Assembly: GCF_003334355.1 (NCBI RefSeq)
Contig: NZ_QOWP01000012.1
From: Escherichia coli
GTDB taxonomy: Bacteria > Pseudomonadota > Gammaproteobacteria > Enterobacterales > Enterobacteriaceae
Length of the DNA stretch: 64,000 nucleotides
Direction: 5' to 3' (one strand)
In this document: piece by piece, positions 453 through 15,667 of the stretch
How positions within the stretch are numbered: the first letter of the stretch is position 1
Layout: the number at the start of each line of letters is the position of its first letter
Notes under the pieces: model-generated
The model's input: the letters and a program-made list of their open reading frames with translations, nothing else
The model's database searches: none
Told to the model about the DNA's origin: nothing
Position numbers and translations under genes: made by a program

Positions 453-1211
453 ATGGAAACACGTCGCGAAGAGCGTATCGGGCAGCTGCTGCAAGAATTA
501 AAACGCAGCGATAAGTTACATCTTAAAGACGCCGCCGCCCTGCTTGGGGTTTCGGAGATGACGATTCGTCGCGATCTGAACAACCACAGTGCGCCCGTCG
601 TTTTGCTCGGCGGCTATATTGTTCTGGAACCGCGCAGTGCCAGCCATTACCTGTTAAGCGATCAAAAATCCCGCCTGGTGGAAGAAAAACGCCGGGCGGC
701 AAAACTGGCTGCGACGCTGGTAGAACCCGATCAGACCCTCTTTTTTGACTGTGGCACCACCACGCCGTGGATTATTGAAGCGATTGATAATGAAATCCCT
801 TTTACCGCCGTTTGTTATTCGCTAAATACCTTTCTGGCGCTGAAAGAGAAACCCCATTGCCGCGCGTTTCTTTGCGGTGGTGAATTTCACGCCAGCAACG
901 CCATTTTCAAACCCATCGATTTTCAGCAAACGCTGAATAATTTTTGCCCGGATATCGCTTTCTATTCTGCGGCGGGCGTGCATGTCAGTAAAGGCGCTAC
1001 CTGTTTTAATCTTGAAGAGTTGCCGGTAAAACACTGGGCCATGTCGATGGCGCAAAAGCATGTGCTGGTTGTCGACCACAGTAAATTTGGCAAGGTGCGT
1101 CCGGCGCGCATGGGTGACCTGAAACGCTTTGATATTGTGGTGAGCGATTGTTGCCCGGAAGATGAGTATGTGAAGTACGCGCAGACGCAGCGCATTAAGT
1201 TGATGTATTAA
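453..1211 (+). CDS. deoR: DeoR transcriptional repressor of the deo operon
   Basis: 252-aa ORF; N-terminal HTH (LLGVSEMTIRRDL) and DeoR-type sugar-binding C-domain; recognised sequence. Confidence 0.93.
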   Translation: METRREERIGQLLQELKRSDKLHLKDAAALLGVSEMTIRRDLNNHSAPVVLLGGYIVLEPRSASHYLLSDQKSRLVEEKRRAAKLAATLVEPDQTLFFDCGTTTPWIIEAIDNEIPFTAVCYSLNTFLALKEKPHCRAFLCGGEFHASNAIFKPIDFQQTLNNFCPDIAFYSAAGVHVSKGATCFNLEELPVKHWAMSMAQKHVLVVDHSKFGKVRPARMGDLKRFDIVVSDCCPEDEYVKYAQTQRIKLMY

Positions 1212-1217
1212 TGACGT

Positions 1218-1250
1218 ATAACCGGATGACGTTTCGCGCCATCCGGTTAT
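1218..1250. terminator. Bidirectional hairpin terminator between convergent deoR and dacC
   Basis: Inverted repeat ataaccggatg...catccggttat in the 46-bp convergent gap. Confidence 0.6.
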
Positions 1251-1257
1251 CAGAAGA

Positions 1258-2460
1258 TTAAGAGAACCAGCTGCCGAACCACTGATGGAATTTCATCATC
1301 ACGAAATCCCACACCCGACCAAAGAATCCGCCCTCTTCCACATTTTCCATCACGATCAGCGGACGCTGCTCAATGGATTTACCGTTAAGCTGGAAATCAA
1401 TGGTCCCGACAACCTGACCTTTTTTCAGCGGTGCGGTAAGCTGCGGTTCCGTTAACGTATAACTCGCTTTCAGGTTTTTCAGCTGCCCACGCGGTATGGT
1501 CACTGAGCCCGCTTCACCTGCCCCGAGATTCACTTCGCTCTTATCACCAAACCAGACGCGCTGAGTCACAAAGGTGGCATCAGGTTTAATTGGCGTCACG
1601 GTTTCAAAGAAGCGGAAACCCCAGGTCAATAATTTCTCAGACTCATTAAAACGGATACGGTCAGTTTTCGCCCCCAGCACTACGGAGATTAAACGCATAT
1701 CACCCTGGGTAGCCGAAGCAACCAGATTATATCCCGCACCTGCCGTGGTTCCTGTCTTCATGCCATCAACATTCAGATTGCTGCTCCACAGCAGACGGTT
1801 ACGGTTAGGCTGACGAATTTTGTTGAAGGTGAACTCTTTCTCTTTATGAATGGCGTACTCTTCCGGCACATCGTGGATCAATGCTTTACCCAGCAATGCC
1901 ATATCGCGCGCGGTACTGAACTGCCCCGGCGCATCCAGACCGTGCACCGTCTGGAAGGTAGTGTTGGTCAGACCCAGTTTTTTGGCATAACCATTCATCA
2001 AACCAATAAATGACTCCTGGCTCCCGGCAACGTAATCGGCCAGCGCAATACAGGCGTCATTACCGGACTGGATAATCACACCTTTGTTCAAGTCTGCCAC
2101 CGAAACCTGATCGCCCGGTTTGAGGAACATTACCGATGAACCACGCAGTGCCGGATTTCCCGTCGCCCAGGCATCTTTACCGACCGTCACCATATCGGTG
2201 AGTTTAATCTTATCGGCCTTAAGCGCCTGCCCAACCACATAGCTGGTCATGATTTTAGTCAGGCTCGCGGGATCCAGTTTCTCATCCGCGTTGCCTTCTG
2301 CCAGCACTTTACCGCTGGCGTAATCCATTAAAATCCATGCACGCGCATCCACGCTCGGCGCTTCAACGGTTTGTTCCGCCGCGAATGCCGTTGGGGCAAA
2401 AAGGAATAAAAATGCAGAACCCGCTGCAAGACCACGAAGGAGAGAGGAGTATTGCGTCAT
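1258..2460 (-). CDS. dacC: D-alanyl-D-alanine carboxypeptidase DacC (PBP6)
   Basis: ORF 1258..2481; start placed at [10 protein letters not shown] (signal peptide); SxxK motif SLTKIMT and SGN motif present; 400 aa. Confidence 0.93.
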
Positions 2461-2706
2461 AAATGCCACCCGAGTATCCATTCAAAAAAAATACGTTATA
2501 TCGCCGTATGATAAGTTCGGTGATTAATAACGCACACACAAACTTAAAGAAACCGTAAGTTGGTAAAGTTTTTAAAGTTTATGCAATATCCTGCCGCTTC
2601 GCTGCTTCTGGTGTCATTTTTTTGCCAGCTGTTGCTTAAAAGTTAACTTTACTTCACCATCGGAGTCCTGTTCAGCCTGTGGCTGCCTGTCGGAAAAGGG
2701 GTGAGT

Positions 2707-3333
2707 ATGATTACGCTGTGGGGTCGGAATAATTCAACTAACGTAAAAAAAGTATTGCTGACGCTCGAAGAACTGGAACTACCTTATGAGCAAATTCTCG
2801 CGGGCCGTGAGTTTGGGATAAATCACGATGCTGATTTTCTGGCGATGAACCCTAACGGGCTGGTGCCGTTGTTGCGTGACGACGAAAGTGATCTCATTCT
2901 TTGGGAATCAAACGCCATTGTCCGCTATCTGGCGGCACAGTACGGGCAAAAACGCCTGTGGATCGACTCACCGGCACGTCGTGCGGAAGCGGAAAAATGG
3001 ATGGACTGGGCAAACCAGACGCTCAGTAATGCTCATCGCGGGATCCTGATGGGATTAGTCAGAACACCACCGGAAGAGCGCGATCAGGCCGCCATTGATG
3101 CCAGTTGCAAAGAGTGCGACGCCCTGTTTGCCCTGCTCGATGCGGAACTGGCAAAAGTAAAATGGTTCTCTGGCGACGAGTTTGGTGTGGGCGATATCGC
3201 TATCGCACCGTTCATCTACAATTTGTTTAACGTTGGCCTGACCTGGACACCGCGTCCAAATCTGCAACGCTGGTATCAGCAACTCACTGAACGCCCCGCA
3301 GTGCGCAAAGTGGTGATGATTCCCGTTAGCTAA
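2707..3333 (+). CDS. gstB: Glutathione S-transferase GstB
   Basis: ORF 2701..3333; start placed at [10 protein letters not shown]; GST N- and C-domains; 208 aa. Confidence 0.92.
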
Positions 3334-4445
3334 TTGCGTGGGCTAACTTTAAGTAATTCCCCACTGGACTCGTCGGTGAGAACGTATAAATAACCGTCGG
3401 GTCCAGTGCGAACATCACGAATTCGCTGCCCTCTGTCCGTTAAAATACGGCCATCTTCTGTCACTTTGTCGCCGTTGACGCTCATCACAATGACATCTTT
3501 ATCTTTCAGCGCGCCAATAAATAATTTTTGCTGCCACTGGGGGAATTTATCGCTGTTATAGAAGGCCATGCCGCTCACAGCGGGCGAATCTTTCCAGTAA
3601 AAAACAGGTTGCTCGGTCCCGGCGACGATCTCCCCTTTCGCTTCCGGTATCTTAAAGCCTGAATAGTTGATTCCCCAGGTTGCCAGCGGCCAGCCGTAGT
3701 TTTTGCCTTTTTGCGGGATATTAATTTCATCACCACCGCGCGGGCCATGTTCATTCAGCCACAGTGCATTACTCCACGGATTCATCGCCATTCCTTGCGG
3801 ATTACGAATGCCATAAGACCAGATCTCGGCGCGCGCACCGGATTCCTTTATAAAAGGATTATCATCCGGGATTTCGCCCTGGTCGGTCAGACGCACCAGT
3901 TTGCCCTGTAATTTATCCAGATCCTGCGCCGTCGGGCGCTGATTGTTTTCGCCCAGAGCAATAAAAAGATAACCTTTACCGTCGAATACCAGCCGCCCGC
4001 CAAAATGGTTGCCGGTAGACAGTTTTGGCATCTGGCGAAAGACGGTGCGGAAGTCGGTCACTTTTGAGAGATCATCACTTAAGCGGCCATAACCCACAGC
4101 AGTTCCGGCTTTGCCATCATCGCCAACTTCGGAATAACTTAACCAGATGCGGCGAGACTGAGCAAAATCAGGCGCTAAAACCACGTCCAGCAGGCCGCCC
4201 TGCCCGTGCGCCCAAACGTCCGGCACTCCGGAAAGCGGCGCAGATAATCCTTTTCCTGCTTGCCAGTGACGCAACTCGCCGCCGCGCAGAGTGATTAACA
4301 TACCGTGATTATCGGGTAAAAAGGCCAGTGACCAGGGATGGTCGAGTTTGTCTTGCAGTACTTCGACATTTACCGTTGCAGGAGCCGCCCAGAGAGCGGA
4401 AGAAAGACAAATAAGGGGCACAAGGAAAAAGAATGGTCGATGCAT
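3330..4445 (-). CDS. yliI: Soluble aldose sugar dehydrogenase YliI (PQQ-dependent, beta-propeller)
   Basis: 371-aa ORF with signal peptide; recognised sequence; stop codon overlaps gstB stop by 4 bp (convergent). Confidence 0.92.
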
Positions 4446-4504
4446 AACGCCTCCGGATTGACTCTGGCTTAAAGCGTAGTCAGTGGAGGAGATAACAAAT
4501 TCAT

Positions 4505-4550
4505 TTTTACAAAAACTTAAACATGAAGGGGGAGACGCTTTCTCCCCCTT
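4505..4550 (-). terminator. Intrinsic terminator downstream of bssR
   Basis: GC-rich hairpin aagggggaga...tctccccctt followed by a U-rich run on the minus strand. Confidence 0.6.
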
Positions 4551-4555
4551 AGTTT

Positions 4556-4939
4556 TCAGGCCTTCTCAAGCATGGCGTGCTTCTGCAGGCTCTGGATACT
4601 CAGCGTTAAGCTCATCAGACAATTTTCAAGCTTATCGGCGTTGACGGTAATAACAGTCGGGCAATCATGGTGCCCACTCATCAAACATACTGCGGCTGTC
4701 GCTAATGCTTCTTCAGCATGATGAAGAGCACTCCACTCTTCCTGATCCAGATGAAGATTCAACCGCAGCGATTTATCGTGCAGTTCGCGATTCAGTTTAA
4801 AAAAGTTATCTCGTAGATGATTGCTTTCGCTGACGGACATGTATCCTTTTGCCTTCCTCAGTTGCACGTATGCGGCGAGGTCAACGCGTGCGTCGATCAA
4901 CCGGTTCAGCAGATCGATTCGCTGTCTGTCAACGAACAT
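4556..4939 (-). CDS. bssR: Biofilm regulator BssR
   Basis: ORF 4556..4972; start placed at MFVDRQRIDLL; 127 aa. Confidence 0.9.
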   Translation of the reverse strand: MFVDRQRIDLLNRLIDARVDLAAYVQLRKAKGYMSVSESNHLRDNFFKLNRELHDKSLRLNLHLDQEEWSALHHAEEALATAAVCLMSGHHDCPTVITVNADKLENCLMSLTLSIQSLQKHAMLEKA

Positions 4940-5151
4940 ACTTCGATCCTCCTCTTTCCAGCCTTGTTGCAATTAAATAGTATGGCTATTTTTTGAGCAA
5001 AATGCTGTCCAGGATCAATTCTTCACGCCGAATTAACAAAATTTACATTTCCTTCGCCTCCACCAGCGAATGAGATTGCGATACAAATTTTATCCAGAAC
5101 TCTGTAGAATCCCTGCCCTGACCTTTCCTGTAACTGAATATTTTTTAAGCT

Positions 5152-6477
5152 ATGAGCAAAGTAACTCCCCAGCCGAAAATCGGCTTTGTTTCCCTTGGCT
5201 GTCCGAAAAACCTTGTTGATTCAGAGCGTATTCTCACCGAACTCCGCACTGAAGGTTATGACGTGGTACCGAGCTATGACGATGCGGACATGGTGATCGT
5301 CAACACCTGCGGCTTTATTGACAGCGCGGTACAAGAATCACTGGAAGCCATTGGTGAAGCGTTGAATGAAAACGGCAAGGTTATTGTGACCGGTTGTCTG
5401 GGGGCAAAAGAAGATCAGATCCGCGAAGTCCACCCGAAAGTGCTGGAAATCACCGGGCCTCATAGCTATGAGCAGGTTCTGGAGCACGTTCATCACTACG
5501 TGCCGAAACCGAAACACAACCCATTCCTGAGCCTGGTGCCAGAACAAGGTGTGAAACTGACGCCGCGTCATTATGCCTATCTGAAAATTTCTGAAGGCTG
5601 TAATCACCGCTGCACCTTCTGCATTATTCCGTCTATGCGCGGCGACCTGGTGAGCCGTCCGATTGGCGAAGTGTTAAGTGAAGCGAAACGTCTGGTAGAT
5701 GCGGGCGTTAAAGAGATTCTGGTGATCTCGCAGGATACTTCCGCCTATGGCGTTGATGTTAAACATCGTACTGGCTTCCACAACGGCGAGCCGGTAAAAA
5801 CCAGCATGGTCAGCCTGTGCGAACAGTTATCGAAACTGGGGATCTGGACACGTCTGCACTACGTTTACCCTTATCCGCATGTGGACGACGTCATCCCACT
5901 GATGGCAGAAGGCAAAATCCTGCCGTATCTGGACATTCCGTTGCAGCACGCCAGCCCGCGCATTCTCAAACTGATGAAGCGTCCGGGTTCTGTAGATCGC
6001 CAACTGGCGCGCATCAAACAGTGGCGCGAAATCTGCCCGGAACTGACCCTACGCTCAACCTTTATTGTCGGCTTCCCTGGCGAGACGGAAGAAGATTTCC
6101 AGATGCTACTCGACTTCCTGAAAGAAGCGCGTCTGGATCGCGTTGGCTGCTTTAAATACAGCCCGGTTGAAGGTGCAGACGCCAATGCCCTGCCTGACCA
6201 GGTTCCGGAAGAAGTGAAAGAAGAACGCTGGAACCGTTTCATGCAGCTGCAGCAGCAGATTTCCGCCGAGCGCCTGCAAGAGAAAGTGGGCCGTGAAATT
6301 CTGGTGATTATCGACGAAGTGGACGAAGAAGGCGCAATTGGTCGCAGCATGGCAGATGCACCGGAAATCGACGGCGCGGTTTATCTCAATGGTGAAACCA
6401 ACGTTAAGCCGGGTGATATCCTGCGTGTGAAAGTCGAGCACGCCGATGAGTACGATTTGTGGGGTAGCCGGGTTTAA
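5152..6477 (+). CDS. rimO: Ribosomal protein S12 methylthiotransferase RimO (radical SAM MTTase)
   Basis: 441-aa ORF; MTTase N-domain, radical-SAM CxxxCxxC (CNHRCTFC) and TRAM domain. Confidence 0.95.
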
Positions 6478-6483
6478 TTAATT

Positions 6484-6513
6484 CAGGCCGGGCAAAATCA
6501 TTTGTCCGGCCTG
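6484..6513. terminator. Bidirectional hairpin between convergent rimO and dgcI
   Basis: Inverted repeat caggccgggcaaa...tttgtccggcctg. Confidence 0.6.
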
Positions 6514-6523
6514 CGAATAATGA

Positions 6524-7852
6524 TTACTGCCAGCTAATCTGTGCCCTGCCGTTTTTCTTACTCTTATACAGCCGCTCATCCGCCAGCATTTTCAAGCGTT
6601 CGACGGTAGGACATTCATTTGAATGTGCTACACCGATACTGGTACTTAAATTAATGCTTCCCACCTGGAAATGAACGATTTCTTTTAGAATCGATAGCAA
6701 CTCTTCCAGCGTTCCACCCGTATAAATCACCGCAAATTCGTCACCGCCGAAGCGGTAGACTTTACCTTTATCTACCGGGATCTGTGATTTAAGGATTTTC
6801 ACCACTTTCATCAACACTTCATCGCCCAGCAAATGACCGAAGGTGTCGTTAATGTTTTTGAATTTATCGACGTCAAACAGGCACAAATAACCGCCTTTTT
6901 CCGGCAGCGCTTTTAAATCTTCGTCAAAGGATTTTCTGCCCATTGCTTTGGTCAGGTCGTCCAGGAACGCCGAGTTATACATACTGTAGAGTTTTTTGAC
7001 ATCGGCAGCCGAAAAGAAAAGCCCGCCATCCAGTACGCGTTCAAAATGGTTATTAATGATGGCTTCTTTCTCCACAATACCACGATTAATCACTCTGCGT
7101 ACCAGATAGAGGCAACTGGCACCCGATATCACTGCCACCAATGCGGCAAAGAAAATAATCAATGTACAAACCCGCAAATAAACATCTTTTTTATACGCAA
7201 ATACATACAATCCGGTCGGCAAATAGGCGAAGTGCTCCATCGCTTCCGAAACGGTGAAGATGGCGTTTTTAGCATTATATTCATCACCGGTCACCGGTTT
7301 ACCGTTCTTAAATAGAGAGAACATCAGGTTCTCGCTGTCCATCGCCAGCGATTTTGACAGTAAAGAAAAACGCTCCAGACCAAGCAAAAATATCAGACTA
7401 CGATTGTGAGTTACCGGATAGAGGTAATAGACGAAGGTTTTACCGTCAAAAGAGATAAACCCTGTATTTTTGACATGTCGATACTTCACAACCTGCATAA
7501 TATCTGCACAATAATTTTTCTCGAACTCCTTTACCTGAATACATTCGTCACTGGAAATCAGATAAGGACCGACATCGTACAAATAAGAGGGGGAAACCGA
7601 GTCGGCGTAAGCTGTGCGCAAACCAACCAACAGCTGTTCCTCCGTGGGATTTAGCGTGTTGATAAGATCAATTGCCACGCTACGCCGATATTCAGCAATA
7701 TTTGCCACCGCAAAAGCAGTATCAATAACGGACTGTTTCAGGCTATACACCCGTTCCTTTACCATTTGAGTGTAGATCCCGCAGGCAACTGCTGAAATCA
7801 TGATAAAAATCAGCAGACTGACTGTAAGTACGAACTTATTGATTCTGGACAT
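6524..7852 (-). CDS. dgcI: Diguanylate cyclase DgcI (YliF), membrane-anchored GGDEF protein
   Basis: 442-aa ORF; GGDEF motif ([10 protein letters not shown]) in the C-terminal domain; TM segments. Confidence 0.93.
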
Positions 7853-7859
7853 ACGTAAA

Positions 7860-10208
7860 CTACTCTTTTACTAATTTTCCACTTTTATCCCAGGCGGAGA
7901 ATGGCATGGGTTTCTGGTACAGATACCCCTGAGCCTGAACACATCCTAATTTAATTAATTCGCGCGCAACGTCTTCGCTCTCTACGCCTTCCGCAATCAC
8001 CGGGATCCGGTTATAGCGTGCCAGATCGAAAATAATGCGCACAATTTTTCCCGCAGTACCGAAAATATCGCCGGTAAATTGCGAGTCCACCTTTATGCTG
8101 TCTGGATTAATTTCATAAAAACGTTTCAGGTTTGACAAACCGGTGCCAAAGTCATCAATCGATATCCGTACCCCTTGTTTACGCAGTTGTTCAATATTGA
8201 GATAAAAATGTTCATTAATTCGCTCGATCACGGTTTCAGTGATCTCAACACAGAGGCTGTTCGCCTTCAGGCCATTTTCTTTCATGATGGTGGTAAAACA
8301 CTCATGAAAGTGCGGTTCGTTTAACTGCCAGGGCGAAACATTAATATGCAGTAAGAAATCATCCTTCAGCGACGCACGCTGACTAAAATGTCTGAATTCA
8401 CCCATTGCCGTTTTAATAATCTGATAACCCAGCTCATTGATAAACCCGATATCTTCAGCAATGGTAATGAACTTCAGCGGTGAAATGATCCCCCGCTCCG
8501 CAGAAACCCAACGGCACAACGCCTCCGCGCCCAGAATGGCGCGGGTGTTAATATCAACGATCGGTTGATAGACGAGGAATAGTTCGCCAATTTCCATTGC
8601 ATGGCGAATATTACGCGCAATCCAGATATTCTCTTCTATTTCGTTGAGTTTCGCGTCATCACAGAAAATAAACTCGGAGAACATATGGTCACGGATACTG
8701 GAAATCGCCAGTTTCAGTTTTTCTGCGTAACTCCAGGCGTTTTCCCCCTGCAAAGGTTCACAAATGGCAGACTTATGGATGCGCAGATTGCGGTAGCCAA
8801 AGCTGCTGTCAAAATCGTTTACCATCGCTATTTTACGGGTAAATGTCTGTACATTTTCCCGACACAGAAGTAAATAGAGATCGGCATTGAATGTCACGAT
8901 ATCGCAGCATTGCGCATATTTCTCGGCAATTCGCTGACACAATTTCCTGACGATTTTATTGCGTTCATCAACACCAAACACCGCTTCCACGGCTTCCAGA
9001 CCACACAGTTTGATGATCCCCACAGCCAGATACTGATTATTGTTGGACTCAATAATCGCCATATTTTTAATAAAACCGCTTTCCTGATCGTAAGAGATCA
9101 GTGAGAGCAATTTATTTGACCGTTCAATTTCGGCATCTTTCATTTCCGCGATCGAATTTTTGATGCTGATAATCTCTTTCGCATCGCCTTCGCGAATTTT
9201 CAGAGCCTCGATCTGATCCGTTGAGTCGGGCAAAAACGCCAGCGTATTAACCAGCTCGGTCATTTCAGAAAATTGCCGACGGAACACACGAGTGGTCATG
9301 AAATATACCACCAGCAACACGATAATAATGAACGCAAACGGTAGATAAAAAAGTTTATCTGATGCGTTCAATAAATTACCGCCAGGATAATAAAAATAGA
9401 TTTCGAACAATGCATTATTTGGCACTGCTGATGTCTTTGCAATATACTCCGTATCGACAGAATCAATAATATTATAATTACCTTCGCTATTATAAATAAT
9501 CAGTTTTTCACGAGCGAGTTGATTCTTGGCAATGATCTCATGACCTTGTTTCAAAAATAGAACTTCATCATTAGCGCTGATTTGATCAAGATACTCGTTC
9601 AGATACCGCCAGTTTAAATCGACATGAATTTTATCTACCGCTAACAAATCGTGATCTTTGCCGTTGATACGTAGCGTAAAAGAGATACATTTTTTACCCG
9701 GACGATCAAAGCAATTGTATGCCGGATTCCAGCTGTTGTTAGAGTCATCTGAAGCCACCGACCACGGTCGTTTCGATGGGTTAAAATCGGCAAAAATAAC
9801 CCGCCCTGACTCGTCGACAAGCGGTCCATTTACTTGTTCCTGATGATAAACAACGATTTTATCATTCGCCCTCCGCGAAAAGAGATAATATTTATTATCA
9901 TCAAGTACCAGTCCCACCGAGTCTAAAAATGGCATCATTTCCATTTTCAGAATCACGGCGCGTTGAATCTCCTCTGTATTTTTTAATAAATACAGTGAGT
10001 CCTTTAATGTCAGGGCCGAACGTTCAATATCTTTAAAGAAATAGCCAACGTTTTTCTGAATAAGTTCAAAGCGGCTATCGGCACGTTTTACCGCGCGTTC
10101 CGATACCAGTTGATAGTTAATGATGAAAAAAAGACCAATAAATGACAGTGCTGCCAATAAAAATAAAATTATCAGCCTTATCTTTATCTTTTCGTATAAA
10201 CTCAGCAT
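7860..10208 (-). CDS. pdeI: c-di-GMP phosphodiesterase PdeI (YliE), membrane-anchored EAL protein
   Basis: ORF 7860..10286; start placed at [12 protein letters not shown]; EAL motif (AEALCRW) in the C-terminal domain; 782 aa. Confidence 0.92.
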
Positions 10209-10385
10209 GTTAATACATTTAACAAAATAACTATCTGAACGCTGTGCCGCTGCAAAAATAGTCCCTTGCTGCGGCTTTTTAACCAAATTACCCGATTCTA
10301 CAAAATCAGCAGAAAGTTACAACACTTGCTTAGGGCAATAATTTCCTGTGAGGTGATTACCCTTTCAAGCAATATTCAAACGTAA

Positions 10386-11297
10386 CTATCCTTTAATTTT
10401 CGGATCCAGCGCATCGCGTAAACCATCGCCCAACAAATTGAACGCCAGTACGGTCAGAAAAATAGCCAGGGCCGGAAAAACAGCGACATGCGGCGCGATA
10501 ACCATATCCGCTCGTGCCTCATTGAGCATTGCTCCCCACTCTGGTGTCGGCGGCTGCGCACCGAGGCCGAGAAATGACAGGCTGGCGGCAGAGATAATCG
10601 AGGTGCCAATGCGCATGGTGAAAAACACCACGATAGACGAGACGGTCCCAGGCAAGATATGACGCAATAAAATGGTCATATCGCTGGCACCAATACTGCG
10701 TGCTGACTCAATAAAGGTTTGCTGTTTCAACACCAGCGTGTTGCCGCGCACCAGTCGGGCAAACGCGGGGATGGAAAAAATGGCGACTGCGATAATCACG
10801 TTAGCAATGCCGCTTCCCAACACCGCAACAACAGCGATCGCCAGTAAAATACCCGGGAAGGCAAACAGCACATCGCAAATGCGCATGATCAGCCGATCCC
10901 ACCAGCCTTCATAATATCCAGCCAACAAGCCCAGCAACGTCCCGATCGCCGCACCGATAAACACGGCAAACACGCCCGCCGCCAGCGAGATTTGCGCACC
11001 AACCAGGACACGGCTGAAAATGTCGCGCCCCAGTGAATCGACGCCAAACCAGTGCTGCAAAGAAGGTCCGTTATTCAGGTTGTCATAATCAAAATAATTT
11101 TCGGCGTCATAGGGAGCGATCCAGCGTGCAAAAATGGCCACCACAATCAATAAAATAACGAATAATGCGGCGGTCATCGCCATATGCTGACGGCGAAATC
11201 GTCGCCAGAATTCATGCCACGGTGTACGCACCTGGTCAGGTTTGACCAGTGGCATGGCGTTTAACACCGCCTGACGTCGCCAGTTAAATAGTCGCAT
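10386..11297 (-). CDS. gsiD: Glutathione ABC transporter permease GsiD
   Basis: 303-aa ORF; ABC permease fold, recognised sequence. Confidence 0.94.
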
Positions 11298-11299
11298 CC

Positions 11300-12220
11300 T
11301 TACTTGTACCTGATAGCCGGGTTAATGGCGGCGTAAAGCACATCCACCACTAAGTTGATAAGAATAAATTCCAGCGAGAAAAGCAGAATTTCCGCCTGAA
11401 TCACCGGGTAATCGCGCATTTCTACGGAGTCAACGAGTAAGCGTCCAAGTCCGGGCCAGTTGAAAACTTTCTCCACCACGATAGATCCACCGAGCAAAAA
11501 GCCAAACTGTAAGCCCATCATGGTCACTACCGGGATCATCGCGTTGCGTAGCCCGTGTTTGAGGACAACCCAGGTTTCGCTCACCCCTTTCGCCCTCGCG
11601 GTACGCATATAATCTTCGCTTAAAACGTCGACAAATGACGCACGGGTAAAGCGCGCCATCACGGCGGCCACTGCCGCGCCGAGCGTCAGGGAGGGTAAAA
11701 TGTAGTGCTGCCAACTGTCTGCTCCCACAGTAGGCAGCCAGCCCAGTTCAACGGAGAATACCTGAATTAAAAGCATCCCCAGAGCAAATGCCGGAAACGA
11801 GATCCCCGACACCGCAATGGTCATACTCAATCGATCCGGCCAACGATTACGCCAGACGGCGGCGATAATTCCCGCCGCCATACCAAATATCACCGCCCAG
11901 ACCATACTGGTTATGGTCAGCCACAGCGTTGGCATAAAGCGGCTGGCAATCTCATCGGCAACCGGACGACGCGACACCATCGACAGGCCAAAATCCCCCT
12001 GCACAGCATTGCTGATATAGTGCCAGAACTGGTGATACAGCGGCTGATCCAACCCCAGCTGCTGACGCACCAGTTCTATAACCTGCGCATCAGCTTCGGG
12101 CCCGGCAATCAATCGCGCCGGATCGCCGGGCAGCATATGGACAAATAAAAACACCAGCACCGAGACGATAAACAGCGTCGGAATCAACCCCAGCAAGCGT
12201 TTGATAACGTAATTAAGCAT
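11300..12220 (-). CDS. gsiC: Glutathione ABC transporter permease GsiC
   Basis: 306-aa ORF; ABC permease, recognised sequence. Confidence 0.94.
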
Positions 12221-12237
12221 TCCACTCCCTGCGTTGC

Positions 12238-13776
12238 TTATTGCAAATCCGCGTCTTCAAAGCTAAAGCCGGTGTCTGGCATGATCCAAAAACCGGTCAG
12301 GTTTTTACTGTGTGCCGACACCAGTTTTTCTACCACCAGCGGGATCCACGGCGACTCTTGCCAGATGATATCCTGCGCCGCCTTATATAAGCGGGTCTTT
12401 TCCGCCGGATCATTAGTTTTCAGTGCCTGAGCCAGGAAGTCATCCACCTGTTTATTGCTGTAAAACGCGGTATTAAACAGCGTCGGTGGCCAGTTCTGCG
12501 AGGCAAACAGCGGCGATAGTGCCCAGTCCGCTTCGCCGGTTGAAGCCGACCAGCCAGTGTAGAACATCCGCACGCCGCTCTCTTTTTGCCCTTTACCTTC
12601 AACTTCTGCCGCCCGCTGTCCGGCATCCATCGCAGTCACCTGGGCTTTAATCCCGACCTGCGCTAACTGCTGCTGGGTAAATTGCAGCACTTTCTGCGCG
12701 GTGCTGTGGTTATGTGACGACCACAGCGTGGTACTGAAACCGTTGGGATATCCCGCCTCTTTCAGTAATTCGCGCGCTTTCACTGGATCGTAAGGCCACG
12801 GTTTATAACTTTGCGCGTAGGCGATACTTGGCGGTACCACACCAGTAGCTGGCGTTGCATAGCCCGCAAAGGCAACTTTCACCAGCGCCGGACGGTTAAT
12901 GGCGTAATTCAGCGCCTCACGGACCTTCGGGTTATCGAACGGCTTTTGCGTCACGTTCATACTGATATAACGCTGCATAATTGACGGACTGGCCATCAAC
13001 TCGATATTTTTGTTTTTCTCCAGCAGTGTGGCCTGCTCGTAAGGAATGGGGAAAGCAAACTGCGCTTCACCGGTTTGCAGCATTGCCGCGCGGGTGTTGT
13101 TATCCGCCACCGGACGCCAGGTTATGCTGTCCAGTTTGGGCAATCCTGGCTGCCAGTAACCCGCGAATTTTTTCACCTTCACAAAATCGGTCTGATTCCA
13201 GGTATCCAGTTCATACGGTCCGGTTCCCACCGGATAAAAACCAATCTCCTTGCCATATTTTTCCAGCGCTGGCGGTGAAATCATCGCGGTCGCCGGATGG
13301 GCAAGAATATTAATAAACGCTGAGAACGGCTGTTTGAGGGTAATCTTTACCGTTGTCGGATCGATCGCTTCCGTTTTAGCAATATTCTTATACAGGTTAT
13401 AGCGTTTAAGATGATTCGCCGGATCGCTGGCCCGGTCCAGATTCGCTTTCACCGCCGCGGCGTTGAAATCGGTGCCATCCTGGAATTTAATGCCTTCCCG
13501 CAATTTCACGGTGTAAGTAATGCCGTCATCGGAAACGGTATAACTCTCCGCCAGCACGTTTTTCAGTTTCATCTCTTTATCCAGACCGAACAGCCCCTGG
13601 TAAAACGATTTCGCTACGGCCTGAGATAACGTGTCATTTGCGTCATACGGATCGAGCGTGGTGAAATTCGATCCTACCGCCACCACCACATCTTTGGCAG
13701 CGAATGCACAAGATGCCATCAACGCTGTCGCAATGCCCAGCGCCACTAACCCACTACGGTGTACAGCTCTTGCCAT
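12238..13776 (-). CDS. gsiB: Glutathione-binding periplasmic protein GsiB
   Basis: ORF 12238..14043; start placed at [14 protein letters not shown] (signal peptide); 512 aa; SBP family 5. Confidence 0.92.
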
Positions 13777-13795
13777 TTTATTCTCCGCCTGAATG

Positions 13796-15667
13796 TTATC
13801 TACGCATGAATGCGTATTCTGATTGTGGTTGTGCGACGTAATGCCCCGGCCCGACGCATTGCAACGAGACGGCTGCCACCTCTTCGCCACGCAGATGAAT
13901 ATTGCTGGGAAGATCGTCCGACAGCAGTACACGCTGCGGTCGTTGTCGGGACGGTTCAGCGACCGGAACTGCCGCCAGTAATTTACGCGTATAAGGATGC
14001 TGCGGGTTTTCGAAGACCGCGCGCCGTGGACCAATTTCAACAATTTGCCCGAGATACATCACCGCCACACGATGACTAATCCGCTCTACCACGGCCATAT
14101 CGTGGGAGATAAACAGATACGCAATGCCGAAATCACGCTGGAGATCGAGCAACAAGTTGATAATCTGCCCGCGAATAGAAACATCCAGCGCCGAAACGGC
14201 TTCGTCGGCAATGATCACTTTTGGATTCAATGCCAACGCGCGAGCAATGCAGATGCGCTGGCGCTGACCGCCGGAAAACTCATGCGGGTAACGCCAGGCA
14301 TGTTCAGGTAACAGGCCCACGCGCTCCAGCAACCACGCAACGCGTGCAGCCGCGTCTTTACCTGGCAATAAACCGTGTACACGCAGCGGTTCGATAATCG
14401 AATCACCGATGGTCTGACGTGGGTCCAGCGAAGCGTAAGGGTCCTGAAAAATAAACTGAATATCCCGGCGCAATGCCTGAAGTTTGCCGGGTGACAAGGT
14501 ATCGATTCTCTGACCGTTAAAGATAATTTCGCCGCCCTGCGATTCGACCAGGCGCAGCAACGCCCGCCCGGTAGTGGATTTACCGCTGCCAGACTCGCCC
14601 ACCAGCGATAGCGTTTCGCCAGGCCAGAGATCAAAACTGACTTTCTCAACGGCATGCACTTCCCGCGTTACGCGATTCAACAAACCGCTGCGCAAAGGGA
14701 AACGGGTGACAAGATTACGCACTCGTAAAACAGGTTCGCCATCCACCACCGTTTTCTGCTCGATGGGGGGGGCCTGTTTCGCTGGATGTTCAAGCGATAT
14801 CAACGGGAAACGTCGGGGATAATCTAACCCTTTCATCGCACCAAGTTGCGGAACAGCAGCTAACAGCGCACGGGTGTAAGGATGTTGCGGTGCATGAAAA
14901 ATCTGTTCGACGGTACCCGTTTCCACCGCCTCGCCCTGATACATCACCAGTACCCGATCGGCAATCTCTGCCACCACGCCCATATCGTGAGTGATAAAGA
15001 TAACGCCCATCGACATCTCTTTTTGCAATACTTTGATTAATTGCAGGATCTGCGCCTGAATAGTGACATCCAGCGCGGTGGTTGGCTCATCGGCAATCAG
15101 CACCGCCGGGCGGCATGACAGCGCCATCGCAATCATCACTCGCTGGCGCATCCCGCCAGAGAGTTGATGCGGATAACGTGAAAGAATGGTTTGTGCCTCA
15201 GGAATGCGTACCTGATCCAGCATCCGCTTCGCCTCGACCATCGCTTCTTCACGACTGGCGTTCTGATGCAGACGAATTGATTCGGCAATCTGTTCACCCA
15301 CAGTAAATACCGGGTTCAGCGATGTCATCGGCTCCTGAAATATCATCGCCATATCCGCACCGCGAACATGGCGCATTTGTGCAGCGTTCTGCTCGCTAAG
15401 TTCAATCACTTCGCGACTGCGCCGCTGCAACAGCATTTTATCGCACTGTACTAAACCGCCCGCCTGTTCCAACAGGCGCATCAATGCCAACGCAGTCACT
15501 GACTTACCGGAGCCGGATTCGCCAACAATTGCCAGCGTCTCACCGCGTTGCAGACTAAAAGAGAGATTGCGGACCGCAGCTATTTTCTGCTGGTCCTGCA
15601 TAAAGGCAATATTCAGATTTTCAACCGCCAGCACATTACCGGCATCAAGTTCATCACTGTGTGGCAA
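13796..15667 (-). CDS. gsiA: Glutathione ABC transporter ATPase GsiA (two ATPase domains)
   Basis: Two Walker A motifs (GESGSGKS twice); start placed at TTG (15665..15667) giving MPHSDELD and 623 aa; overlaps iaaA 3' end by 14 bp. Confidence 0.88.

Follow-up and report, generated by a model that had tools for sequence, protein, structure and literature searches.

The pdeI-dgcI operon of Escherichia coli, a probable old horizontal acquisition between rimO and gsiD

The 3.9-kb stretch between the rimO and gsiD stop codons in the 64,000-nucleotide E. coli DNA analysed here (the window) most probably represents a two-gene operon, pdeI followed by dgcI, that was acquired horizontally by an Escherichia ancestor, has been kept at this site and is bound by H-NS (probability of about 0.85). 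Entry would have come after the Escherichia line had parted from those of Salmonella and Citrobacter, and the AT-richness of the pair would stem from an origin in an AT-rich mobile gene pool, with a presumably AT-rich donor. The locus is the known yliE-yliF (pdeI-dgcI; b0833-b0834) operon of E. coli K-12, and the main finding as such contains nothing new. Positions 5000-12500 of the window are 100% identical to E. coli strain EC5, and both genes carry their names (pdeI and dgcI) in RefSeq.

Organization of the locus

An earlier note on this DNA described a GGDEF gene and an EAL gene lying tail-to-head on the same strand, and the annotation bears this out, the dgcI ATG lying 7 nt downstream of the pdeI stop codon (Table 1). 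The order dgcI-pdeI given in the title of that note is the reverse of the actual order of transcription, pdeI then dgcI. Its end coordinate of 10286 corresponds to the far end of the longest open reading frame (TTG start), 78 nt 5' of the accepted start codon; the annotated pdeI ATG is at 10208 (MLSLYEK...), which is also the start that has been used experimentally.

The right-hand edge of the insert is a GC-rich hairpin that is likely, from its sequence, to act as a bidirectional terminator; a comparable hairpin is found between rimO and gsiD in genomes with an empty site. In O157:H7 a toxin-antitoxin segment takes the place of the rimO-dgcI spacer. The left-hand edge is the gsiD-pdeI spacer, in which a sigma-70-like site was found on the minus strand (10322-10295) as a consensus match only; consensus promoter and terminator scans of the locus gave no more sites than did shuffled sequence. 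No integrase, tRNA or transposase genes, known RNA families or direct or inverted repeats were found at the borders of the pair.

Table 1. Features of the pdeI-dgcI locus (window coordinates) and its mobile paralogues
Feature	Coordinates	Strand	Description
rimO	5152-6477	+	From annotation; conserved flank, convergent with dgcI; GC 0.528; 99.8% amino-acid identity to E. albertii
GC-rich hairpin CAGGCCGG...CCGGCCTG	6484-6513	.	Read in the 46-bp rimO-dgcI spacer
dgcI (yliF)	6524-7852	-	442-aa membrane diguanylate cyclase; second in operon; GC 0.435
DgcI GGDEF catalytic domain	6542-6970	-	aa 295-437; RFGGDEF intact
DgcI periplasmic GAPES2 sensor	7166-7777	-	aa 26-229; predicted tandem PAS/dCache-like fold; invariant Cys104/Cys115 pair
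pdeI (yliE)	7860-10208	-	782-aa membrane protein; first in operon; GC 0.418
PdeI EAL domain	7908-8615	-	aa 532-767; EALCR, EITE, DDFGTG and EGVE intact
PdeI GGDEF-like domain, predicted degenerate	8619-9080	-	aa ~377-530; contains G412
PdeI periplasmic sensor	9369-10106	-	aa ~35-280; Pfam CHASE9 at aa 35-150; most AT-rich coding part
gsiD-pdeI spacer	10209-10385	-	177 bp; GC 0.373; promoter region of the yliEF unit
gsiD	10386-11297	-	From annotation; conserved flank; last gene of iaaA-gsiABCD; adjoins rimO in outgroups
Paralogous pair, pheV island			Beside integrase and TraI_2
Paralogous pair, IncF and other plasmids			Beside bcsA/bcsB or IS elements
Paralogous pair, Rep3/CcdAB plasmid contig			

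Base composition, codon usage and H-NS

The GC content of dgcI (43.5%) and pdeI (41.8%) lies ~4.0 and ~4.8 sd, respectively, below the mean of the window's 38 remaining genes (52.8%, sd 2.3, minimum 0.466). All of the 3.7-kb windows of lowest GC in the 64 kb begin at 6501-6901 (0.42 compared with a median of 0.521), so that the earlier description of the pair as AT-richer than its flanks holds, as does the emphasis that it placed on the 5' half of pdeI: the 5' 316 codons have a GC content of 0.379 (GC3 0.386) and are the most AT-rich part of the gene, compared with 0.451 for the EAL domain. The enrichment in Phe, Ile, Asn, Lys and Tyr noted by eye is also found on counting, these residues making up 30.5% of DgcI and 33.2% of PdeI against 21.1% (sd 4.0).

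Sliding-window GC and codon usage had been proposed together as a check on the locus, and the two gave different answers. The GC deficit falls mainly at codon positions 1 and 2, in keeping with proteins rich in these five residues, and GC3 is modestly low (0.497 for dgcI and 0.455 for pdeI versus 0.577, sd 0.040). The codon adaptation index (z of -0.7 and -0.8) and a leave-one-out likelihood of synonymous choice (z of -0.6 and 0.0) are both indistinguishable from those of the neighbouring genes; the index uses weights after the Sharp-Li E. coli table, and the likelihood measure is independent of those weights. Since GC3 is only modestly low and both codon measures are neighbour-like, the anomaly of the pair is one of base and amino-acid composition and not of codon preference. 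Viewed as an islet, the pair is atypical in base composition (4-5 sd, in the lowest-GC stretch of the window) and indistinguishable from the window genes in codon usage. The neighbour-like codon usage is read here as amelioration, although taken alone it would be compatible with a native gene too; the synonymous sites of the chromosomal copy would have drifted largely to host values, with the AT-encoded amino-acid composition persisting.

H-NS occupancy was looked up in the literature and is recorded for yliF and for the yliD-yliE spacer. By ChAP-seq, yliF is bound by H-NS and is listed as a predicted transferred gene, the yliEF unit being bound (Higashi et al., 2016; PMC4720273, table S2), and the yliD-yliE spacer is scored TRUE both for H-NS binding and for a known promoter (PMC4720273, table S3). 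The pdeI coding sequence is unlisted, since the ortholog table of that study does not include yliE. DgcI was undetectable under standard laboratory conditions (PMC5635695), expression of both genes is higher at 37 than at 23 °C (PMC12890032), and expression of the pair also rises in biofilm subpopulations. A literature search for hns-mutant expression data on the pair found none. Thus, the binding part of the earlier suggestion that the cassette is H-NS-silenced stands for yliF and the yliD-yliE spacer, while the silencing part is suggested by binding taken together with low expression: H-NS located on the AT-rich promoter region and on at least the dgcI coding sequence would silence the operon.

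Distribution, mobile relatives and origin

The synteny comparison that had been proposed for rimO and gsiD shows the two genes to be adjacent where the pair is absent. They adjoin directly, with no gene between them, in Salmonella enterica (90 bp) and Citrobacter rodentium (87 bp), and the junction is also gene-free in C. werkmanii, two 'Enterobacter' isolates and Mangrovibacter (44-110 bp). In Klebsiella, Erwinia psidii and Enterobacter sp. Ag1 the two genes are separated by 0.5-0.9 kb, in which there is no pdeI or dgcI homologue. The empty junctions are GC-rich (61-68%). This outgroup sample, in which at least six species have a tight junction, is wide rather than dense within the Enterobacteriaceae; the Salmonella, C. 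rodentium, Klebsiella and E. whittamii loci were found through BssR homologues. The pair is thus not conserved at this position in the other enterobacteria sampled, and the empty site supports the claim that it was acquired rather than native.

All 5,426 complete E. coli genomes match the region, 5,399 of them with a coverage of 80% or more of the 7.5-kb query, and the gsiD-rimO interval is occupied by the pair in E. coli, E. albertii and E. fergusonii. In E. whittamii it adjoins rimO on a contig that ends inside pdeI, and a protein index contains a PdeI sensor-region protein from E. marmotae. The shared site and the host-like codon usage agree with the acquisition being ancient, as the earlier note had it. 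In an index of 5.8 billion proteins the PdeI sensor region matched only Escherichia proteins, and among 1.84 billion cluster representatives it gave only 55 matches, most of which were fragments of that one protein. With the DgcI sensor, no match was named outside Escherichia/Shigella. The distribution is therefore restricted, with an empty site in relatives. The search for a donor lineage found none, and the sole relative that is plausibly from outside E. coli is a CHASE9 fragment at a contig end, whose neighbour is a rutR gene sharing 85% identity with that of E. coli.

The two-gene cassette exists in four deeply diverged versions, of which three are carried on E. coli plasmids or on the pheV island (Table 1), always with the EAL gene preceding the GAPES2-GGDEF gene. 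These copies are 42-47% (EAL protein) and 32-41% (DgcI) identical to the chromosomal proteins, and about 25-47% over all; unlike the chromosomal pair, they are flanked by mobility genes. Their catalytic motifs are intact, and the plasmid lineages have a sensor without the RPW motif. Their GC content is 0.30-0.36 and their GC3 0.26-0.31, the latter rising to 0.37-0.40 in E. fergusonii and 0.46-0.50 in E. coli, with GC2 constant at ~0.31-0.34. Homologues of YliE and YliF on bcs plasmids, seemingly restricted to Escherichia, have been described (bioRxiv 10.1101/2025.05.09.653004). The pairwise identities of PdeI and of DgcI across cassettes are correlated (r = 0.97), and this was discarded as evidence of co-evolution of the partners since a few close pairs drive the correlation.

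These observations bear on a reading that we disfavour and consider very improbable, in which the pair was ancestral to the Enterobacteriaceae, was lost independently elsewhere and is AT-rich owing simply to the amino acids that membrane and periplasmic sensors require. The neighbour-like codon usage and adaptation index, the lack of mobility genes or scars alongside and the concentration of the GC deficit at codon positions 1 and 2, where it reflects protein composition, are all what such a history would leave. It would nevertheless require many clean independent deletions, because the junction is tight and gene-free in at least six outgroup species and the short gaps of three more contain neither pdeI nor dgcI, and it does not accommodate sensor domains with essentially no relatives outside Escherichia. 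In addition, the low GC and very low GC3 of the plasmid and island copies, together with the GC3 of 5' pdeI, argue that AT-richness is a property of the DNA of this family and not of its proteins only.

Old native genes in decay, with relaxed selection and AT-biased mutation lowering the GC content of pseudogenes in waiting, would account for the very low expression (PMC5635695), for a dN 2-5 times that of the flanking genes and for occasional lesions: one strain has an IS1 deletion, the assembly of the E. albertii type strain carries a 5' frameshift, and the protein index includes truncated clusters. Relative to E. albertii, however, dN/dS is 0.049 for dgcI and 0.056 for pdeI and lies at 0.04-0.07 in all five domains (dS of ~0.6-1.7), and the within-species averages for yliF are a dN of 0.0041 and a dS of 0.0775 (PMC4720273). 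A dN/dS of ~0.05 and catalytic residues that are intact in all four chromosomal and mobile lineages indicate, at the level of sequence, that pdeI and dgcI are working genes, and deletion and over-expression phenotypes have been reported (PMC3484386, PMC7553319, PMC11651652), so that decay is a highly unlikely explanation. Somewhat less remote, though still improbable, is a recent acquisition that spread among Escherichia by homologous recombination through the rimO and gsi flanks instead of entering once in an ancestor. Around the module, divergence between species is unusually high: dS between E. coli and E. fergusonii exceeds 1 from deoR to gsiA, compared with 0.29-0.38 for moeA and moeB, and dS relative to E. 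albertii is 1.13 for pdeI, a value above those of the flanks (0.5-0.85) and of bssR (0.21). Import of alleles can give such patterns, but divergence of this size within the module argues for age, the codon usage is ameliorated, and the module is matched in every complete E. coli genome and in four other Escherichia species. A single ancestral acquisition followed by retention at the same site remains the preferred reading.

Predicted proteins and relation to known systems

PdeI and DgcI are both predicted to be inner-membrane c-di-GMP enzymes in which a double-Cache-like periplasmic sensor, with a transmembrane helix on either side, precedes a cytoplasmic output region. Pfam reports CHASE9 (2.4e-62) and EAL (1.9e-68) for PdeI and GAPES2 (2.3e-143) and GGDEF (PF00990; 1.6e-24) for DgcI, with no dCache family in either. 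The structural models nevertheless show both periplasmic regions to be dCache-like, each having a long N-terminal helix and two PAS-like alpha/beta modules between the two transmembrane helices. A common origin of the two sensors was rejected (hhalign profile-profile probability of 0.4%), and sequence searches identified no solved structure of either. NCBIfam lacks a dedicated model for either PdeI or DgcI, and the equivalog matches were all far below their cut-offs. Besides an R147-P-W149 motif, the PdeI sensor contains a Cys166/Cys174 pair; the literature yielded no assigned ligand for it, as the earlier note had stated.

In DgcI the RFGGDEF motif and the metal- and substrate-binding residues are invariant in six family members, and a published residue table gives KNDHDRGGDEF for yliF (PMC3484386). 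DgcI is toxic on over-production (PMC5635695). The RxxD inhibitory site five residues upstream of GGDEF is absent from all four cassette lineages, and the domain thus reads as a complete cyclase domain lacking the product-inhibition site. This site is common in the GGDEF family and is not required.

The EAL domain of PdeI gives a significant, full-length profile match, and its translation contains EALCR, HINVS, EITE, DDFGTG, EGVE and QGY, in line with the entry EALR / QRDD / TE / ENEEDKEQ for yliE (PMC3484386); judged by these residues, it appears to be a catalytically complete phosphodiesterase domain. The preceding domain has a GGDEF-like fold with NADLY in place of GGDEF and KLC in place of the metal-binding DxD (DVD), the equivalence having been established by pairing secondary-structure elements in the PdeI model with those in the DgcI model. 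The catalytic motif and the metal-binding aspartates are accordingly missing, Pfam gave no GGDEF match in this domain at E <= 10 and hhalign gave no usable alignment with the GGDEF domain of DgcI, and the models depict it as degenerate and non-catalytic.

Published reports on PdeI conflict. Over-expression of pdeI blocks phage N4 as other phosphodiesterases do (PMC7553319) and also lowers biofilm, whereas in another study it led to an 11-fold rise in c-di-GMP that depended on G412 (PMC11651652), a residue that is present in the PdeI of the window; dgcI goes unmentioned in the latter paper. The two proteins may form one signal-gated source and sink. A stronger version, in which the EAL and GAPES2-GGDEF genes encode an obligate two-protein unit and PdeI is a ligand-gated activator of DgcI or of another cyclase, is doubtful but worth stating: the first part is suggested by the survival of adjacency and gene order across four lineages, of which three are carried by mobile elements, at 32-47% identity, and the second by a non-catalytic GGDEF-like domain that nonetheless goes with a G412-dependent rise in c-di-GMP. 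On this stronger version, the cassette would be a portable, self-contained c-di-GMP switch circulating in the Escherichia mobilome, often beside clusters for cellulose synthase and without a source traceable beyond the genus.

The consequence for genome annotation is small, since the gene names, the flags from composition methods (decades old), the tabulated H-NS binding and the plasmid homologues (in a 2025 preprint) were known already. The locus does provide a clean textbook case of an old acquisition, with an exact empty site in sister genera, a foreign amino-acid composition, equilibrated synonymous sites and living plasmid relatives at ~33% GC. The present analysis adds a few small points: the predicted dCache-like sensors, a conserved periplasmic cysteine pair in each, the apparently non-catalytic GGDEF-like domain of PdeI and the pairing in four lineages; they may aid the search for the signals that control pdeI-dgcI and may help to settle whether PdeI lowers or raises c-di-GMP.

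Compared with yliE-yliF of E. coli K-12, the locus has the same gene order, the same 782- and 442-residue products and the same domains (CHASE9 and EAL; GAPES2 and GGDEF), and is a strain-level allele without substantive difference. The PdeI sensor shares 9-15% sequence identity with the ligand-binding dCache_1 domains of the chemoreceptors and sensor kinases McpU, PctA/PctD and CqsR and differs from them in being filed as CHASE9, in giving no Pfam dCache_1 match and in having the additional conserved Cys166/Cys174 pair. The plasmid and island YliE/YliF pairs described by the Romling group beside bcs clusters resemble the chromosomal pair in gene order, domains and intact motifs and, as far as searched, in being confined to Escherichia; they differ in their lower GC content, in sequence (25-47% identity) and in their flanking IS, integrase, relaxase or replication genes. 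Finally, the pair resembles the H-NS-bound acquired 'core' genes of Higashi et al. (2016), among which yliF and the yliD-yliE spacer are listed, in its AT-richness, conservation in all strains, transferred flag, H-NS binding and faster evolution than its neighbours.

Locus and base composition

The region belongs to the E. coli chromosome: strain EC5 is 100% identical over positions 5000-12500, which are matched at an identity of at least 95% in 5,426 of 5,426 complete E. coli genomes. The stop codon of pdeI (yliE), the upstream gene, lies only 7 nt before the start of dgcI (yliF), and the two are therefore read as one unit transcribed from pdeI into dgcI. A 177 bp spacer separates gsiD (yliD) from pdeI, while the 46 bp spacer between dgcI and the convergent rimO contains a GC-rich hairpin. 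The end at 10286 proposed in the earlier note is how far upstream the longest ORF extends; pdeI is accepted to start from the ATG at 10208, where the published cloning primers also begin.

Positions of the pdeI-dgcI module, its flanking genes and selected internal features
Feature	Position	Strand	Source
rimO	5152-6477	+	RefSeq annotation
rimO-dgcI spacer	6478-6523		
dgcI	6524-7852	-	RefSeq annotation
DgcI Cys104/Cys115	7508-7543		
pdeI	7860-10208	-	RefSeq annotation
PdeI Cys166/Cys174	9687-9713		
gsiD	10386-11297	-	RefSeq annotation

The earlier note had described an AT-rich, anciently acquired and probably H-NS-silenced cassette; the composition it noted is confirmed, and its interpretation is supported. 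The GC contents of dgcI (43.5%) and pdeI (41.8%) compare with a mean of 52.8% (s.d. 2.3, minimum 46.6) for the window's 38 remaining annotated genes, and the five 3.7 kb windows of lowest GC in the 64 kb all begin at 6501-6901. As had been noticed by eye, the 5' half of pdeI is the most extreme part, with 37.9% GC over the first 316 codons (membrane and periplasmic part), and both products are enriched in Phe, Ile, Asn, Lys and Tyr (30.5% for dgcI and 33.2% for pdeI versus 21.1%, s.d. 4.0). The spacer upstream of pdeI has 37.3% GC. The deficit is uneven among codon positions: GC1 (∼0.49) and GC2 (0.31-0.32) are both very low, and GC3 is only about 2-3 s.d. low (0.497 for dgcI and 0.455 for pdeI versus 0.577). 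The two genes do not stand apart from their neighbours in the codon-adaptation index (CAI; Sharp-Li weights) or in a leave-one-out likelihood of synonymous codon use, a measure that is independent of those weights. Of the refuting pattern set out in the earlier note, GC content and codon usage like those of the flanking genes, the codon-usage half thus holds but the GC half clearly does not.

Empty sites, occupied sites and mobile relatives

The synteny comparison proposed in the earlier note, anchored on rimO or bssR, gave a clear answer. gsiD and rimO adjoin with no gene between them in Salmonella enterica (90 bp), Citrobacter rodentium (87 bp), and C. werkmanii, Enterobacter sp. Bisph1 and BIGb0383 and Mangrovibacter (44-110 bp); in Klebsiella, Erwinia psidii and Enterobacter sp. 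Ag1 the gap is 0.5-0.9 kb and lacks pdeI and dgcI. Hairpin or REP-like sequence of high GC content (61-68%) fills the empty junctions. The pair occupies the site in E. albertii and E. fergusonii and adjoins rimO in E. whittamii, where the contig stops within pdeI; a protein-index search places PdeI in E. marmotae. It follows that the module is a genus-specific insertion of Escherichia, already present before the species split, which supports the anciently acquired, non-core origin proposed.

The same site holds different cargo in Superficieibacter electus (comparison locus L003:11448-14286), namely four ORFs unrelated to pdeI or dgcI, including HEAT-repeat-like and metallophosphoesterase-like proteins (assigned by eye). 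In O157:H7 (L082:1984-2978) a segment of ∼1 kb and 42% GC, encoding a RelE/ParE-family toxin and an HTH antitoxin, takes the place of the rimO-dgcI hairpin spacer, a replacement found in roughly a fifth of spread-sampled E. coli genomes (7/30 among the rows listed); insertions have therefore recurred in the gap beside rimO. Variation also affects the opposite side of this gene, since the rimO-bssR interval contains an extra LacY-like permease in Klebsiella (L094:7417-8658) and, in E. whittamii (L095:4036-8896), such a permease with a LacI-family regulator and a GH42 β-galactosidase.

In an index of 5.8 billion proteins the PdeI sensor region (residues 1-530) matches only Escherichia, and among 1.84 billion cluster representatives it has just 55 matches, mostly fragments of PdeI itself; no match to the DgcI sensor was named outside Escherichia/Shigella in the protein-index search. 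The few remote matches (25-36% identity) are all on E. coli mobile DNA, each an EAL gene followed immediately by a GAPES2-GGDEF gene: on a pheV-tRNA island with an integrase and a TraI_2 relaxase, on IncF and other plasmids (adjoining bcsA/bcsB or between IS elements) and on a Rep3/CcdAB plasmid contig. The four cassette lineages, including the chromosomal one, share just 42-47% (EAL) and 32-41% (DgcI-like) identity; all four keep EALxR, DDFG, EGVE and GGDEF, and all four lack the RxxD site. The mobile copies have 30-36% GC, and GC3 rises from 0.26-0.31 in these through 0.37-0.40 in E. fergusonii to 0.46-0.50 in E. coli, with GC2 flat at ∼0.31-0.34. Under the amelioration model of Lawrence and Ochman, an AT-rich import adjusts first at synonymous sites, and the gradient has the pattern expected of such an import. 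Plasmid YliE/YliF homologues, apparently restricted to Escherichia, have been described (Romling-group preprint, bioRxiv 10.1101/2025.05.09.653004). At the end of a metagenomic contig (L091:149-2427) lies part of a CHASE9 gene with 32% identity to PdeI, ∼1.1 kb downstream from rutR, which is just 85% identical to its E. coli counterpart; this divergence hints that an enterobacterium other than E. coli, which may be a second host of the family, has a distant version elsewhere in its chromosome.

Maintenance and expression

Both genes are maintained and not decaying: dN/dS against E. albertii is 0.039-0.067 across three regions of PdeI and 0.048-0.051 in both of DgcI, with dN two to five times that of the flanking genes. 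Lesions are occasional. One is a deletion caused by IS1 in a pig isolate; in the natural knockout E. coli HCP30S3_I2 (L083:3025-3853) an IS1A element has removed all of pdeI and all but a 114 bp remnant of dgcI. Another is at the 5' end of pdeI in the draft E. albertii type-strain assembly (NBRC 107761; L002:6322-6400), where the initial 26 codons do not share the reading frame of the rest; the cause is a frameshift or an error of sequencing, and the full 782-residue PdeI is present in other entries of that species (protein entry P0002). Between E. coli and E. fergusonii (453-15667 versus L085) dS is saturated (1.1-2.2) for every gene in the deoR-gsiA stretch, rimO among them, but just 0.29-0.38 for the neighbouring moeA and moeB, and iaaA is absent from E. 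fergusonii. It looks from these sequences as if either E. coli or E. fergusonii had exchanged a block of ∼15 kb around the module with some more distant lineage.

The binding part of the H-NS proposal is documented, and silencing itself would follow by inference: yliF is listed as H-NS-bound, as is the transcription unit yliEF (Higashi et al., 2016, PMC4720273, table S2), and the yliD|yliE spacer is H-NS-bound with a known promoter (table S3). The transferred-gene code of yliF, 'L/N' (table S2), would read Lawrence-Ochman and Nakamura if the codes stand for references 40-42 of that paper. DgcI is one of four GGDEF/EAL proteins that were undetectable, and its over-production is toxic (Sarenko et al., 2017, PMC5635695), which fits a missing product-inhibition site. 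In CFT073 both mRNAs are higher at 37 than at 23 °C (PMC12890032).

Function and sensor anatomy

On the best-supported reading, the two proteins are an antagonistic pair, gated by signals and normally near-silent, that supplies and drains the c-di-GMP pool. Over-expression of PdeI blocks phage N4, as does that of six other phosphodiesterases (PMC7553319), and is reported to lower biofilm; yliF deletion alters bladder-cell adherence, complemented by a foreign cyclase (PMC3484386), and is reported to change curli heterogeneity. Against a simple phosphodiesterase role, PdeI over-production gave an 11-fold c-di-GMP increase that G412S abolished, in a study that did not consider dgcI (eLife 2024, PMC11651652). 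When the secondary-structure elements of the two models are matched, the metal-binding DVD of DgcI corresponds to KLC in PdeI and GGDEF to NADLY, and Gly412 lines up with the glycine conserved in 'FGH'. By inference the GGDEF-like domain of PdeI, devoid of catalytic residues, is no canonical cyclase, and any increase must arise indirectly; given the conserved pairing with a DgcI-type cyclase, this partner is an obvious, if speculative, candidate.

The locus, its foreign composition, H-NS binding and the plasmid relatives are already in the literature. The additions made here are modest: a series of empty sites set out explicitly, the rise in GC3 among the cassette lineages, a dCache assignment for both sensors, conserved cysteine pairs and a residue-level case for a non-catalytic GGDEF-like domain in PdeI. 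Pfam recognizes CHASE9 and EAL in PdeI, and its AlphaFold model is confident over residues 40-280 (pLDDT ∼80-87; family alignment of 13 sequences). Both periplasmic sensors are assigned as dCache-like from their predicted structures; profile-profile comparison detected no sequence relationship between them. The PdeI segment Arg147-Pro-Trp149, which resembles the dCache_1 signature, is absent from the plasmid lineages. Both sensors keep their cysteine pair in the diverged island and plasmid paralogues, and that of DgcI is invariant in 6/6 sequences; redox or disulfide control of these sensors is conceivable, by analogy with CSS-domain phosphodiesterases.
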